A DNA stretch of 62,994 nt, the filler included, from Reclinomonas americana ATCC 50394 (lineage: Eukaryota): NCBI GenBank assembly GCA_048213135.1. It is 11 parts of 11 records of this genome, joined end to end, with 100 filler letters (N's around TTAATTAATTAA, not from the genome) between each part and the next. Parts side by side here need not be neighbours in the genome. Positions count along the whole stretch, not along the records: positions 1 to 3,624 come from AFZH01019585.1; positions 3,725 to 10,084 come from AFZH01019586.1; positions 10,185 to 15,043 come from AFZH01019587.1; positions 15,144 to 18,286 come from AFZH01019591.1; positions 18,387 to 30,478 come from AFZH01019594.1; positions 30,579 to 35,930 come from AFZH01019595.1; positions 36,031 to 37,180 come from AFZH01019596.1; positions 37,281 to 43,273 come from AFZH01019597.1; 3 more parts are not named here. The stretch is one strand, 5' to 3'. Shown here in pieces: positions 863 through 51,790 of this stretch (position 1 is its first letter; each line of letters starts with the position of its first letter). Below the pieces are notes generated by a model. That model was given only the letters and a program-made list of their open reading frames with translations, did not search any database and had not been told where the DNA came from. A program made the position numbers and the translations under genes.

Positions 863-1632
863 TCAGTCCACAAAGCTGTCGGTCTCCTCGTCGTACTTGA
901 GTGCAGTGGGATCGGCCTCCAACTGAGCACACACCAGGAGTGAGCAAGGTGTCGGTGACTTAAGAGAGTTGAGACGCGCGACGCAACACCCATGATTCGA
1001 ATCATTTCGCCAATCGTCGGCGTCTTGTCGCCCATGATGGCCATGTCTCGTGCCTTGTCGCGCAGCGCCAGCAACGCCTCCTGACTGATGCGTGTCCATT
1101 TTCCCTGCAAAACACGCTCAGTGAGTGCCACGCTCACCGAAACGCACGCAGACAACGGAGAGAACAAACCGTCAGCTGCTCCATCTCCTCCGCATCGTGC
1201 TCCTTCTCGTACTTGAGCTTGTTCTGTACGTCCTCCTGCACCTGGTGCGTGCGCTCCCGCAGCGACGCCAGCAAATCTTCCAGCGCACTCGGATCCTCTC
1301 CCATGCCAGTCAACAGCGCCTCCAACTCTGCGTCGGTGTACGCTCTTTGCAGCGGTTTGTGGCGCTTCAGAGGCGACGGCGTGGCGGCAGCAGTGTTGCC
1401 TGAGTGTGTGAGGTGTGAGAAGGAGGACAACTCGCTGGGTGCGTGTGAGCAAGAGAGAACCATGCAACGAGTGCAGTCGCTTGCGACCTGCACTGCCCGG
1501 TGTTCGTCGTGCAACTGGCGTCGTTTCTGTCGGGGTTGAGGGCGAAGGCGCATCGCCTAGTTTCCGCGGAGGCACGAACTTGAGTCGACGTCGACCGGCG
1601 GCGGAGGCGGGCGTGGAGGCTGGTGGGCTCAT
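863..1632 (-). CDS. SFR1: Swi5-dependent recombination protein Sfr1/Mei5 family
   Basis: Spliced product has a disordered N-terminus, a coiled coil and the C-terminus EEMEQLT|GKWTRISQEALLAL...TIGEMIRIMG|LEADPTALKYDEETDSF, which fits the Mei5 domain pattern. 3 introns. Confidence 0.75.
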
Positions 1633-1695
1633 CAATGCGCCCTCGGATGATGGCTGATTGTGTGTGAGTCAGATGAGAGAGAGATGAGGGAAACA

Positions 1696-47118: not shown

Positions 47119-50100
47119 TCAGCGTCGACGGCGACTGGTTGGGAGGGAAGAGAGAATGAGAAAATGAGACTCTGGTGAGGTGAGGTAGTGGGGGATTGCA
47201 GCACGCAACGTGGGCGGGGCGAATTCCATGTCGGTGACCGGGAAGGTGTAATGCTCGGGCGTGACCTCGCAGCGCGACGCTAGGTAGTCGCTCATGTACA
47301 TGGGCTGGAGAGGCACCAGACCCAGCTTCTTCAGCTTCACACTGTCGTCCACGTCGAGTGCCACTCCGTCGGCCAGAGCCACATTCACCGCCTGCGTACG
47401 TACAGCAGTCAGTAGCCGCAGACACGTGTCGCCAACAAGAGGAGAACGGCCAACCGTAGTGATCGTGGAAACGACTTTGGCGCCACCCATCTCGCACACG
47501 CGGGCGAGCTTGTCGCGCATACTGGCGTCGCCGACACCAAACCACACCACCCATCCATCAAAAATGCTGCGGAACAAGGGAACAAACAAGTGAGACTGTC
47601 ATCCCTCTGCCAACCGCGACAGTGAAGCGCCGCACACCGTTCTCCACGCTCACGCTCCTTGCGACGCAGGGGCGCCGCGGTGGCCAGTTTGCGGAGTTGC
47701 TCGGCGTCCGCTGCAATCGCATCACGTGAGTCGTCACGAAGCAGTGGTCGATGGCGTGAGCAACATAGACGCAACGAGTGGCGAGGCTGATGACTTCGGC
47801 GCTCCACTCGTGGTCCACCTCGCGCTCCCACTTATTACTGGACTTGCTGTCGATGACGTACGATGGCTGCAGGATCCAGATGCCACGCGCCAGTGCCGAC
47901 AGATACTTGGAGGTCTGCGTCGGCACGCCGGCGAGGAGGTGCGTGGTATCGTCGCACAGATCGGCATCGTTGCGTAGTTCCGCATTCGGGAGTTGACGAA
48001 TCACTGTGCGGGTGACCAGTCAGCCGTAGCCACGCAGAAAAGCAGCACAGACACGCAACTCTTGGACAGTGCCTGCTTCTGTGAGACATCGTTGACGCCA
48101 CTGATCTGGAACACTCTGCGATTCACAGAATGAGTGATCGCGAAACGAGCGTCGGCAGCAGTCGGGAGAGGCGATACCCACCGCTTCTTGTCGGCCGTTC
48201 CAGGACTGTCGATGCGCCGACGCTTCCACTCCGCACCCTCCTGTGACCCATAGTGCAGCAGCGTCTCCTCGCCACCCTCCATCTCATGTGAGGTGCGTTT
48301 GGCGACCGCCGACACGTTGAGATCGTGTCGGGAACGAGGACGCGGAATCTGTGTCGCTTGGCTCAGAAGGGGAACAAAAAAAGCGACTGAGCCAAATTGC
48401 AGCGCTTACCGAGGCGCCGGCGCTGCCTGTGGACGAAGAGCCAGAGCTTCGTGTCGGCTTGGCTGGGGCGGGAGTTGGGTCGAGGAGAGCCAGCAAGTCC
48501 GAAATGTGCGGATCGTCAATAGGTTTCGGTGGTGCCGGTGGTGGAGGTGGAGGCGGCGGCGGCGCAGCCGCAGACACTTGATCGACTTCCATGGGAGCGG
48601 GCTTGCTGCGAGTCAACTCTGACAGATGGCCACCCAGCAGGGCCACGGCACTGGCCAGCGGCTTCCGCCGTGTCTCTTCCGCTTTGCCGGCAGTGGTGAC
48701 AGTGGAGACCGCAGCGGTGGCGGCGGGCTTTTCCGGCGATTTCTGCGGTGATTTCTGCGGCAGCGGTGGGAGTGGGGCAGCGCGTGCTGGCGAGCGCTGC
48801 GGTTGCGGTGGCGATCGCTGTGCAGGCGGTTCGACATGCTGGCGAGTGGTCGCCATCGCCGGCTTCGGCAGAGGCATAGCTTCGGTGACCCGATTGCTCG
48901 GCAAGCTCACCGGCGGCGGCGACGGCGGCCGTGCGACCGCTTCGTAGGCACGAGCAACATGCGCCCCGAACTGGAGCTGTGCACTGGCCGCCACCGCCTG
49001 CAGTGCCGCGTCGGTCTCCTCAGCGGCTGCTTCTGTCGTCGACGGCATGTCAGAAGGGAGAGAATGAGAAGGAGAGAGGGATACACACCACAACGGGACG
49101 CAACTCTCGCTTCGCTGCACTGCCGGGCTGAGAGCCTTCAGAGCGTCGGCGGTCTCCAGTCGCGGGGCCACCGCCGCTTGTGGAGCCGCAATGCGGAAGC
49201 GACGGAGACACGACGAAGGGCAAGACTCGTCCGAGCGCAACTCCGACTCCACGTGATCGATGTGGTAGGCGGTGGGCGAGCACATTTCGCCCTTGCGCAT
49301 GCTGTCCCACAGCCAGTTCGGGTGCACAATGGGCAGCTGCGGAAGGCAGGGTGAGACCAATTGCAAGGTTATCGACAGGGGAGAGAACATAGAAACCACG
49401 ACTGGACCTTGCGTCGTCGAAACAGTTCCTGGCGCTTGCCAGTGGCCACTGGAGTGACCAATATTAGAGGGTTGGCATTCTGGAACAATTCCTTCTTGCT
49501 GTTGATCGTGTGTGAGATGAGAGGCACACAAGAAACTGTAGAACGTCAACACGCAACTTGCTGCGCATCTCCACAATCGAGCAGCCGAATGCGCTGACCA
49601 CGACAGTGGCGTGCTCCACCTCGCTGGACTCCATGCCAGCAAAGGCGACCTGCCACGGTGGATCGGGTTTGCGTCCGGCAATCACCGCCGGCGAGTACAC
49701 AATGCTGGAGTCGAGTGGCAACACGCGTTGCAACTGCACGCACGACGTCAGTGAACTTGACCACGCCACACGCAGTGGATCATAAACAACCACAGACCCG
49801 AATGCAGTCGCCAATCCAGCCCGTGGTGCACGCAAAGACGGCAACCTCGGTGCTGCCTTCGAAGCCGCCGAAAGCCTCCTTCATCGTGCGCTTCAGCTCG
49901 TCCTTGCTCGAGAACACTCGTTTCGTGACGGCATAGGTCGGCATCTCACTGCGTGAGGGATGGGTGGCCTTGGTCATCTGGCGGTAGGCACCGGGTTGGA
50001 TGACACGGCCACCCTGCAGCACAATCTGCTCGGCCACCTCGGCCACGGCATGCGCACTCAGCGAGTCGGTCAGCTGGAAACACAGCTTGGCAAACACGCG

Positions 50101-51790
50101 GCCGTGAGTGGCGGGTGTGGTGGACGCAGGCGCCGCTGCTGCCGCCGCTGCCGCTGCTGCCGCTGCTGCGGCCGTTGATTCCGCAGTCGTACTTGGGCGA
50201 GGTGCAGAGGTGCCACCGAGGGCAGCGGAGGACGACCGCCGTGCAACACTGCATGATGTAACACAAACGTGAGTCAGGCAGATTCTTCGAGAGACACAGG
50301 GCGAGGGAGTCATCCGCACCGTGCATCGGGCAGGTCGTCGACATTAATCAGATACTGCGCGGAGACGGGAACGAGCAGAGATCGCCGTTCGCACTCCTGC
50401 AGCCAGGACAGCGACACGATCCGCGCACCGCGGTTGGCTTGCGCCAGAGGGTACAGATCGCGGGCTTTTGGCTCGCTGCCGACCACCACATGTGTAATGT
50501 CACTGGACGGGGAGCCGGTTGGCAGTCGAATGGCGCCACGCTGTGAATGAGAGAACGGGGCGAGTCAGAACCCTTGTATGTGTAAAAGGAAAAGCACCTA
50601 GCAAACGACGCACCATGCGGCAGATCGTCTTGGCTTCTTCGAGCTCACCGGTGGTCATGCCCGAGAGCATGACCTTGCACCCGTCGAGGAAGAGCGACTC
50701 GACGCCAAAGACATCATCGCCAAACGGCGGCTGCAGCAGCGAGCGCAAGTCTGCGGCGAGAGGGTGGTGAGCGACGCACACGCGCAACATACAGTGCTTG
50801 CCACTCAACTCTTTACGCCACGGAAGGGACTGGCGGCGGTAGGCATCTTGCCAGACCGCGATATCGCGGGTGGTGCTGGGCGATCCGACGAGACCTACCG
50901 CGCACGCATGCGGGTCAATGACCCAACACACTTTACTGTCAACTGAAATCAAAAAACACGCGCACCTCTTCCATTTCATCGGCACCTCCGCGACCTGCGC
51001 GACGACCGGCACCCATGGACGAACCGGGTGTGGGCTTCACGACGGCCGACTGATTCCAGCTGTCTTCCTGCGGGCGCACCAAGTACGAGTCCATGGCGAC
51101 AAATGCTGCGCTCGCACACACACGCACACGACAGTGTGAGACAGATGAGCGCGACAACACACACACACAGAGGGCAAGAGAGCGCACCTTTGGAGGCGGC
51201 CACCTGCTGCAGCCAGTCGGGATGCACCAGCGTCACACGCGGATGCTGCACGGCCACCGCAATCTTCTGCCGCTGCACATCAAACTCGTGTTGTCGCCAT
51301 TACCCAGTGAGACAAGGTTTGGGGAGGGAAGAGAGACAGACCGCACACACACACACACACATATCTTGGCGATCAGCACATTGCACACGGTGCAGTCGAG
51401 CGTGTCGTCCCACACGCCGCCCAGCTCACGACAAGTGCGCATACACGGCTCTCGCTCGGCCGCCGACAGGCCAGTCGACGACATGCGCAGGCCAGCCAGC
51501 GGCGGCAGCACAAATGACTCTGCAGAAAGCATCTCGCCACGCTCCTGCGAGGCATCGAGCCACTGCCGACCAATCACAGGCAAACCGATTTCCGTGGCCC
51601 TCTGACGATGAAATGAATGAATGAATACGATCAACAGAGAGACGCTCTCTCTCTCCCCTCTCTCTCTTCCTCTCACCGAGTGCACATCGCTGCCGACACG
51701 CGCACACACAACATGCGTGGTGGTCTTGTCGAGCGCGGCTTGCACTCGACAATGAAGACTGGTGGCGCATGCGGCTAATGCAGACTGCAG
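47119..51790 (-). CDS. TOPBP1: Multi-BRCT checkpoint protein TopBP1/Rad4/Cut5 (5' truncated)
   Basis: Several BRCT repeats (THVVC, VHPDWL, IVSLSWL, VHPNWLWDS); the C-terminal pair THLLAG..SKYLSALARGIWILQPSY..HEW and FDGW..RVCEMGGAKV matches TopBP1 BRCT7/8. Confidence 0.88.

Follow-up and report, generated by a model that had tools for sequence, protein, structure and literature searches.

Results

Genes of the window and a recurrent donor heptamer

A stretch of 62,994 nucleotides (nt) from Reclinomonas americana ATCC 50394, composed of 11 parts of the assembly GCA_048213135.1 joined end to end (a single 63-kb window with 57% G+C and ten masked stretches, hereafter the window), was analysed for the sequences with which its introns begin, and in particular for a class of 5' splice sites, or donors, reading GTTGCGT. 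Pfam profiles identify in it genes for a protein kinase, a SET protein, a NIT1-like CN-hydrolase, an S28 peptidase, DNA polymerase delta subunit 2 (POLD2), a CtIP/SAE2-like protein, an ABCC transporter, a histidine acid phosphatase, an NAD kinase, a BRCT protein, a Ctr transporter and an ANTH protein. Comparison of 150 of 400 open reading frames (ORFs) of 70-141 amino acids (aa) with Pfam added five further family matches, all of them in genes already found and belonging to the CN_hydrolase, Peptidase_S28, DNA_pol_D_N and DNA_pol_E_B families. Two donor classes are distinguished throughout, namely an ordinary class, GT[AG]NGT, and a T class, GTTG[CT]G, characterized by T at +3. The evidence given below confirms that GTTGCGT, together with its minor forms GTTGCGC and GTTGTGT, is a genuine and frequent donor of ordinary short U2-type introns, with which about one seventh to one quarter of the short introns begin, a proportion far above the frequency of out-of-register donors in humans.

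The original prediction had listed 24 donors starting with GTTGCG(T) or GTTGTG, and this start is indeed present at all of them, with 20 sites reading GTTGCGT, two GTTGCGC (24104 and 50788) and two GTTGTGT (13971 and 40620). Counting both strands, GTTGCGT occurs 46 times in the window, compared with 14.9 ± 3.75 in 100 dinucleotide-preserving shuffles (maximum 26, none of the 100 reaching 46), and relative to the strand domains of the gene model described below 39 copies lie in sense and 7 in antisense. Its near variants are scarce in the window (GTTGAGT 7, GTTGGGT 8, GTAGCGT 1 and GTCGCGT 7). The commonest heptamers window-wide are those of (GT)n/(CA)n and (GA)n/(TC)n, with 201 copies of GTGTGTG and 138 of AGAGAGA, and GTGTGT is seldom predicted as a donor (12 of 201 sense occurrences).

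Protein homology at T-class donors

Spliced alignments were obtained with a protein-to-genome aligner that takes every GT or GC as a donor and every AG as an acceptor and is blind to positions +3 to +8, using panels of 45 ABCC and 60 NIT1-like homologues, each homologue backing an intron being counted as a vote. Alignments were run twice, with GT favoured over GC and with both at equal cost. For the ABCC gene they yielded 20 well-supported introns of 60-76 nt, including those at all five sites listed for this gene. The introns with T at +3 that lie in regions of homology are the following:

38012..38071, plus strand: T-class intron in ABCC, GTTGCGTG, 60 nt; 27-28 of 45 homologues and all gene-model runs
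38538..38603, plus strand: T-class intron in ABCC, GTTGCGTC, 66 nt; 27 of 45 homologues and the gene model
40122..40188, plus strand: T-class intron in ABCC, GTTGCGTG, 67 nt; 40-43 of 45 homologues and the gene model
40620..40693, plus strand: T-class variant intron in ABCC, GTTGTGTA, 74 nt; 18-20 of 45 homologues against 6-7 for the GT three bases on
42478..42538, plus strand: T-class intron in ABCC NBD2, GTTGCGTC, 61 nt; 42-43 of 45 homologues
24104..24166, plus strand: T-class intron in POLD2, GTTGCGCT, 63 nt; homology
13114..13183, plus strand: T-class intron in the NIT1-like CN-hydrolase, GTTGCGTC, 70 nt; 36 of 60 homologues with GT favoured
13971..14027, plus strand: candidate T-class variant intron in the NIT1-like gene, GTTGTGTC, 57 nt, in frame and without a stop
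41935..42008, plus strand: other T+3 donor (GTTACA) in ABCC, GTTACACT; 43-44 of 45 homologues, T at -1
37684..37757, plus strand: other T+3 donor (GTTTGG) in ABCC, GTTTGGAC; 31-35 of 45 homologues, A at -1

Reading frame and homology are restored when the introns at 38012, 38538, 40122, 40620, 42478 and 24104 are removed. With GT and GC at equal cost, GT still beats the GC situated three bases on by 27:3 at 38012, 27:3 at 38538, 43:0 at 40122 and 42:1 at 42478, while 40620 prevails over the next GT by 18:7. In agreement with this, a scan of the 42478 junction with eight homologues gave mean local scores of 364.0 for the GT, 353.0 for the GC at +4 and 355.6 for the next GT. A reading in which the exon ends in GTT and is followed by a GC-AG intron was rejected on these same votes, GC receiving 3, 3, 0 and 1 of 45. 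In POLD2, the exon following 24104..24166 aligns with residues 296-339 of the human protein from its first residue onwards, 24104 is the sole GT donor that keeps the frame (the split codon being ATG), and the exons further 3' continue the Pfam profile free of gaps. The search for POLD2 homologues found none, and a PDB search with the 32-aa exon 24006-24101 gave no match.

Altogether, the T class accounts for 6 of the 24 homology-supported introns (25%), 13114 included. Conserved frames had been claimed to fix most of the listed donors; they do so for six of them (the five in ABCC and 24104) and for 13114 only if GT is preferred, whereas 13971 is ambiguous; for the remaining 16 the evidence consists of coding potential and intron signals.

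The closest protein found is P0121, a Logan-derived sequence with 72% identity over matched stretches and 56% over the best BLASTP alignment, at 97% query coverage. It reads DPWGSCA where the window has DPWG/GTTGTG (13971), Ser-Cys-Ala corresponding to a GTTGCGC donor read through, and it continues with an unconserved stretch up to AVLLD[LM]G. The P0121 counterpart of 13971-14027 may be a T-class intron orthologous to it that the relative retains or reads through.

Donor use according to a donor-agnostic gene model

A self-trained gene model, combining a three-periodic Markov coding model with acceptor and branch-point matrices and an intron length density, was applied to both strands. The model is agnostic towards donors, knowing only GT and GC and charging an equal cost for every GT. 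It was run unbiased, with a donor table learned by expectation-maximization (EM), and with stricter intron penalties of -12 and -15; forcing it onto the opposite strand served as antisense control. In the unbiased run 270 introns were predicted, a total that is unreliable, as are all those obtained at default cost, and the top donors were GTTGCG (30), GTGCGT (20), GTGAGT (16), GTGTGT (12) and GTACGT (7). This run recovered 21 of the 24 listed donors, missing 43640, 47209 and 50788; once the learned donor table was added, 43640 and 47209 were regained and 19557 was lost, with little change in the whole (272 introns, GTTGCG 37, GTGCGT 28). Across iterations, 19-21 of the 24 homology-supported introns were recovered. 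Sense copies of GTTGCG are used as donors in 30 of 58 cases, the corresponding values being 44% for GTGAGT, 37% for GTACGT, 27% for GTGCGT and 6.2% for all sense GT.

The hexamer spectrum of the antisense control is flat, with a top count of 7 and GTTGCG at 3 of 295. At a penalty of -12, 220 sense introns remained (31 of the T class, 55 ordinary) against 34 antisense ones (1 and 1), and at -15 the figures were 167 (25 and 41) against 11 (0 and 0), the T class representing a steady 14-15% of predicted introns at every stringency. A test that dispenses with the gene model, based on the presence of a CT[CG]A[CT] branch site together with a YAG that would close an intron of 50-95 nt, was positive for 30 of 93 GTTGCG sites and for 13.4% of 8340 GT sites (p=2.5e-6), making GTTGCG the strongest hexamer among those with at least 12 occurrences. 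The listed sites to which these analyses apply are:

23932..24005, plus strand: T-class intron in the POLD2 gene, GTTGCGTG, 74 nt; all stringencies; one of three T-class donors with G at -1
19557..19794, plus strand: weak candidate donor, GTTGCGTA, of a 238-nt intron; unbiased run only
21777..21846, plus strand: T-class intron in the S28 peptidase region, 70 nt; unbiased and EM runs only; adjoining predicted exons very short
22162..22225, plus strand: T-class intron in the S28 peptidase, 64 nt; gene model; the next exon, 22226-22384, matches Peptidase_S28 profile positions 361-406
22463..22532, plus strand: T-class candidate intron between the S28 and POLD2 homology, 70 nt; gene model; no conserved frame, seemingly beyond the end of S28 homology
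27349..27409, plus strand: T-class intron, 61 nt; gene model
36523..36609, plus strand: T-class intron, 87 nt; gene model, all stringencies
45476..45547, plus strand: T-class intron in the NAD kinase, 72 nt; unbiased and EM runs; in-frame stop if retained
923..987, minus strand: T-class intron, 65 nt; gene model, all stringencies
7589..7665, minus strand: T-class intron, 77 nt; unbiased and EM runs
43569..43640, minus strand: T-class candidate intron in the histidine acid phosphatase, 72 nt; only with the learned donor table
47135..47209, minus strand: T-class intron in the BRCT-domain gene, 75 nt; EM, -12 and -15 runs
48004..48059, minus strand: T-class intron in the BRCT-domain gene, 56 nt; all stringencies
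49033..49104, minus strand: T-class intron, 72 nt; all stringencies
49499..49557, minus strand: T-class intron, 59 nt; all stringencies
50782..50788, minus strand: listed GTTGCGC site; motif present, predicted as a donor in no run

Additional T-class introns, unlisted originally, were also predicted:

25247..25314, plus strand: GTTGCGCT; all runs
35053..35156, plus strand: GTTGCGTG, 104 nt; all runs
47711..47775, minus strand: GTTGCGTC; all runs
53009..53068, minus strand: GTTGCGTG; all runs
53703..53770, minus strand: GTTGCGTA; all runs
55997..56066, minus strand: GTTGCGTG; all runs
59578..59646, minus strand: GTTGCGTC; unbiased, EM and -12 runs
62686..62752, minus strand, outside the range originally listed: GTTGCGTC; all runs

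Anatomy of the two donor classes

Base composition was then compared between the classes. Among the 77 predicted donors with T at +3, G+4 is found in 44, C+5 in 40, G+6 in 46 and T+7 in 38, and G+5 in just 17, while the 111 predicted donors with G at +3 have G+5 in 76 cases and T+6 in 57. The conserved G at +6 with a pyrimidine, namely C, at +5 is thus found as had been proposed. Lack of enrichment in G+6 had been set beforehand as a refuting condition; G+6 is in fact enriched, with 47 of 78 predicted GTT donors versus 310 of 1321 other GTT sites (p=2e-11), and the class withstands this test. On the intron side, positions +4 to +8 of the T class (GCGUg) are the ordinary +3 to +7, the G at +8 included.

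The exon side behaves differently. Of 60 GT[AG]NGT donors 45 have G at -1, a share that drops to 3 of 34 among GTTG[CT]G donors (p=2.6e-10), where A is the commonest base at this position (13 of 34). Among homology-supported introns, G is at -1 in 15 of the 16 lacking T+3 and in none of the 8 having it (p=1.2e-5); these eight include 37684 and 41935, which have neither the GCG core nor G at -1, indicating that loss of the -1 G goes with T+3 generally and not with the heptamer alone. Core usage differs as well, the ratio of GCGT to other RNGT being 20:38 in the ordinary class and 25:7 in the T class (p=1.4e-4). Hence, the description of the T class as the usual donor plus one inserted T holds for the intron side, which is copied one base on, and fails in two respects, since the -1 G is lost and the core is stricter. 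Within the ordinary class, three homology-supported plus-strand donors without G+5, at 37870 (GTATTA), 41019 (GTAAAG) and 41449 (GTCAGA), each follow an exon ending in cag or gag, which looks like exon-side compensation.

Beyond the donor, introns of both classes are alike. Median length is 69 nt in the T class and 67 nt in the ordinary one, the branch cores CTCAC, CTGAC and CTCAT are common to both, the branch A lies at a median of 17 and 18 nt, respectively, from the 3' end (p=0.57), predicted introns end in AG, mostly [GA]CAG, and G+C is 0.55 in both. With length, branch point and 3' CAG the same, T-class introns are ordinary U2-type introns. All three phases are used by the T class (17/8/9), and past the donor there is no likeness among its members, the ungapped identity of +9 to +40 being 0.268 against 0.260 in the ordinary class.

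Three other readings of the class were rejected on these features. U12-type introns have the donor consensus RTATCCTT and a branch site TCCTTRAC near the 3' end. They resemble the T class in that a second sharply conserved donor word marks a minority of introns, but they have a donor and a branch site of their own, whereas the T class shares branch point, spacing and 3' end with the ordinary class; with the donor being GTTGCGT and the branch cores those of ordinary introns, a U12-type assignment was discarded. An introner or transposon-derived family was dismissed on the identity values of +9 to +40, and a coding motif on the occurrence of the heptamer in all three phases.

Other features of the window

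Intron density is extreme, with 167-220 introns predicted in 63 kb where the antisense control gives 11-34, and intron length is narrowly distributed (median 68 nt, 5th to 75th percentile 56-74.5 nt). Intron interiors are poor in A (16%), with C+T at 57-60%. On the minus strand, an intronless ORF of 713 aa at 16144-18285 carries 14 EsV-1-7 cysteine-rich repeats (Pfam PF19114, E=7e-99). It lies inside 14786-18579, a stretch called non-coding by the self-trained gene model, indicating that its composition differs from that of neighbouring genes; a viral connection or a recent acquisition would be conceivable. As a lead on the origin of the sequence, the ORF hints at an ochrophyte alga close to the brown algae. 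According to bioRxiv 10.1101/2024.02.19.579948, animals and land plants lack the EsV-1-7 family, which is expanded near brown algae.

The best named relatives of the ABCC and NIT1 proteins share 44-69% identity with them and are taxonomically scattered. A metagenome scan with a NIT1 exon returned 80 bacterial-looking loci of 60-71% identity, which were not used. An Rfam search of the window detected nothing at gathering scores and, at E<=0.5, four sub-threshold microRNA-like matches only, with no small nuclear RNA among them. One match, to mir-598 at 27936-28005 on the minus strand (E=3e-6), falls short of the gathering score of 69 with its 44.4 bits and probably reflects a hairpin formed by chance in repeat-rich sequence. 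A weak match to DUF7649, at 2060-2623 on the minus strand (E=1.5e-4), lies under the curated cut-off.

Discussion

Reading the displaced donor

From the statistics of the predicted and homology-supported sites we infer which RNA reads the T class, and in what register. We favour, with roughly even confidence, a U1 register shifted by +1 on ordinary U2-type introns, and not a plain bulge. Cleavage would take place ahead of the first G, and the base-paired part of the site would lie one base deeper into the intron, so that G+1 would occupy the place that the last exon base, G-1, has in ordinary G/GUGCGUg, U+2 would be a single unpaired or mismatched base, and U+3, G+4, C+5, G+6 and U+7 would sit in the places of ordinary +2 to +6. 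U6 and the catalytic core would fix cleavage at the only GU. As one pair would be lost, only the best intron-side sequence, GCGU, would be tolerated. A bulged helix leaves C9 of U1 free for a G at -1; given that the preference for this G is gone, a shift placing G+1 opposite C9 fits better. The proposal of a routine bulged or +1 register therefore survives as regards the offset register, which is the natural reading of an intron side displaced by exactly one base, and loses ground as regards the plain bulge.

Pairing energies were calculated by the nearest-neighbour method with RNAduplex for three U1 5' ends, namely the standard one, one with G at position 5 and a hypothetical matched one. The standard end yields -4.9 kcal/mol with GUUGAGU, -5.6 kcal/mol with GUGCGU and -4.9 kcal/mol with a T site having G at -1. 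It thus pairs better with GUUGAGU than with GUUGCGU, yet GUUGAGU is rare, so standard U1 alone does not explain the consensus. For a U1 with G at position 5 the values are -5.0 to -6.4 kcal/mol with GUUGCGU, in the shifted form, -1.7 kcal/mol with GUUGAGU and -11.5 kcal/mol with GUGCGU; a G at this position of U1 would account for the need of C+5. The data suggest that, in this organism, ordinary +4 is best filled by C, which would agree with a U1 bearing G opposite that position, like the Mastigamoeba-type U1 candidate.

Several considerations speak against the shifted register or against the sites from which it is deduced. Both the splice junctions and the register are derived here from sequence. 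The gene model overpredicts, returning 295 antisense "introns" at default penalty, and removal of a single donor costs a median of just 1.7 nats, too flat a response for ranking introns. In the NIT1-like gene, 13114 loses at equal GT/GC cost to a GC donor at 13109 (14 against 27 of 60 votes), and 13971 is ambiguous, with 19-23 of 60 votes versus 24-32 for 13991-14098. Position -2 has no preference in either class, exon-side pairing being weakly informative. With the standard U1 end, GUUGCGU attains no more than -0.3 to -1.8 kcal/mol, whatever the register. If U1 has G at position 5, a T site having G at -1 would reach -10.0 kcal/mol in bulged form, a gain that the sites do not exploit. Energy alone favours G at -1, the shifted register being predicted by statistics only and not by thermodynamics. 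Finally, GUUACGU pairs with the position-5-G U1 as well as GUUGCGU does, yet it is rare.

A dedicated recogniser complementary to GUUGCGU at its 5' end (for instance with ...ACGCAAC...), be it a variant U1 or some other small RNA, could act beside the ordinary U1, a proposal that we consider unlikely overall. It would suit a sharply defined heptamer with a stricter core (25:7 against 20:38), indifferent to G at -1 and pairing poorly with standard U1, and the hypothetical matched end gives -11.3 to -12.7 kcal/mol with any base at -1; in addition, altered U1 5' ends are reported to track altered donors in Entamoeba and Mastigamoeba, and a mixture of standard and modified U1s is mentioned for Physarum (bioRxiv 10.1101/2022.06.08.495308). 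The Rfam search, however, located no such RNA within the window, and an exact one-base displacement that includes the G at +8, as expected of a single recogniser, would be a coincidence for an independent RNA. The ordinary U1 might instead bulge, pairing G+1 with C8 and U+2 with A7, flipping out U+3 and pairing +4 to +7 like ordinary +3 to +6. We judge this improbable. In its favour, adding one U to the ordinary consensus gives the sequence, human sites with bulges at +2/+3 and at +3 have been validated or predicted (68 and 51 of 201,541 sites, PMC4856993), and RNAduplex picks the bulged form if -1 is G. Under a bulge, however, G at -1 should be favoured no less than it is in ordinary sites, instead of appearing in 3 of 34 (against 45 of 60) and 0 of 8 (against 15 of 16), and the variety of ordinary cores should be mirrored in the T class, which it is not. 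All in all, the data point to an offset reading by a recogniser liking C at ordinary +4, and do not tell one out-of-register U1 apart from a dedicated variant.

The two remaining explanations leave U1 aside. The heptamer might be a historical mark, i.e., the preserved terminus of an element that created introns during a burst of gain, retained since it splices. Extreme intron density, very uniform sizes (median 68 nt), the C+T content of introns and the EsV-1-7 gene in the window would agree with such a past, but this is very unlikely considering that T-class introns share nothing past the donor, that the two classes agree in length, branch point and 3' end, and that seven positions are maintained where a neutral relic would be expected to decay. 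Hardly credible is the view that the sites are not donors as read, being either exon ends in GTT followed by a GC-AG intron (GCGT...) or a coding or regulatory word. It can appeal to 13114, where the nearby GC donor wins at equal cost, and to 13971, which stays in frame and free of stops when read through. Against it stand the ABCC votes at equal cost, the use of the heptamer in all three phases (it being implausible that exons should invariably end in GTT whatever the phase), its position at a drop from exon to intron coding potential on 30 occasions, and the branch point and YAG that follow it.

Relation to known splice-site systems

The shifted register that we favour has its nearest precedent in a few human sites read in a +1 register, at which every U1 pair moves by one base and cleavage stays at GU, the model oligonucleotide being ACA/GUCAAGUAUA, that is, GU plus one base plus the ordinary intron side (PMC4856993). 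These sites resemble the T class in architecture and in the loss of a role for the -1 G; in humans, nevertheless, the register is a rarity proven on single genes, whereas here it would concern 14-25% of introns and one fixed heptamer and is drawn from statistics. The human +2/+3 and +3 bulges, whose predicted sites were given above, likewise have an extra nucleotide right after GU with the remainder pairing as usual, validated non-canonical registers together making up 1.5% (PMC4856993). In them a pair between -1G and C9 is expected, while here the preference for this G has gone.

Unusual donors are also found in Entamoeba, where the donor is GUUUGU(U), U1 carries AACAAAC, and U+3 is the rule in canonical register, and in Mastigamoeba, whose donors prefer GUGCGC and whose U1 candidate, ACGUAC, has G at position 5; C+4 is part of the ordinary consensus in Thecamonas and Mamiellales too (bioRxiv 10.1101/2022.06.08.495308). 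The ordinary class of the window (GTGCGT) is of the C+4 kind, as in Mastigamoeba, Thecamonas and Mamiellales. The U+3 and C+4 of Entamoeba and Mastigamoeba recall those seen here and are explained there by a changed 5' end of U1, but both organisms have one consensus in canonical register, unlike the two discrete classes of the window, one of which is a base out of register. In animals and plants, left- and right-handed 5' splice sites, differing in exon- versus intron-side strength, depend on LUC7 paralogues (PMC11842720). Such handedness also provides two side-biased classes, among which the T class would be extreme on the intron side, without exon-side signal; it is, however, graded and in canonical register, as opposed to a one-base displacement with a fixed heptamer.

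The literature search, made on splice-site registers, U1 and the introns of Chrysoparadoxa and based on listings and text passages, found no account of a discrete heptamer class displaced by one base in at least a sixth of a genome's introns, and a search on the motif string gave primers and unrelated matches only, among the matches listed. Figure S18C of bioRxiv 10.1101/2024.02.19.579948 presents donor logos of six species, in which T+3 may already be visible.

Implications

In a genome with vertebrate-like intron density and introns of 60-75 nt, one out-of-register word serves a large share of introns. Non-canonical U1 registers are otherwise rare (~1.5% of human sites, PMC4856993), the nearest register being found in a few dozen sites, so that nature would provide here, at hundreds or thousands of sites, the means to learn how U1, U6 and the catalytic core handle a one-base offset between binding and cleavage. 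A sharp prediction follows for the U1 genes of the organism. Should it possess two 5' splice-site codes in one major spliceosome, G/GUGCGU and GUUGCGU, the latter (in ~1/6 to 1/4 of introns) read by its own U1 variant, which we hold to be a doubtful outcome, this would constitute a U1-level counterpart of the U11/U12 system that arose inside the major spliceosome. In practical terms, gene finders trained on GT[AG]NGT donors would misplace at least a sixth of the exon ends in this lineage.

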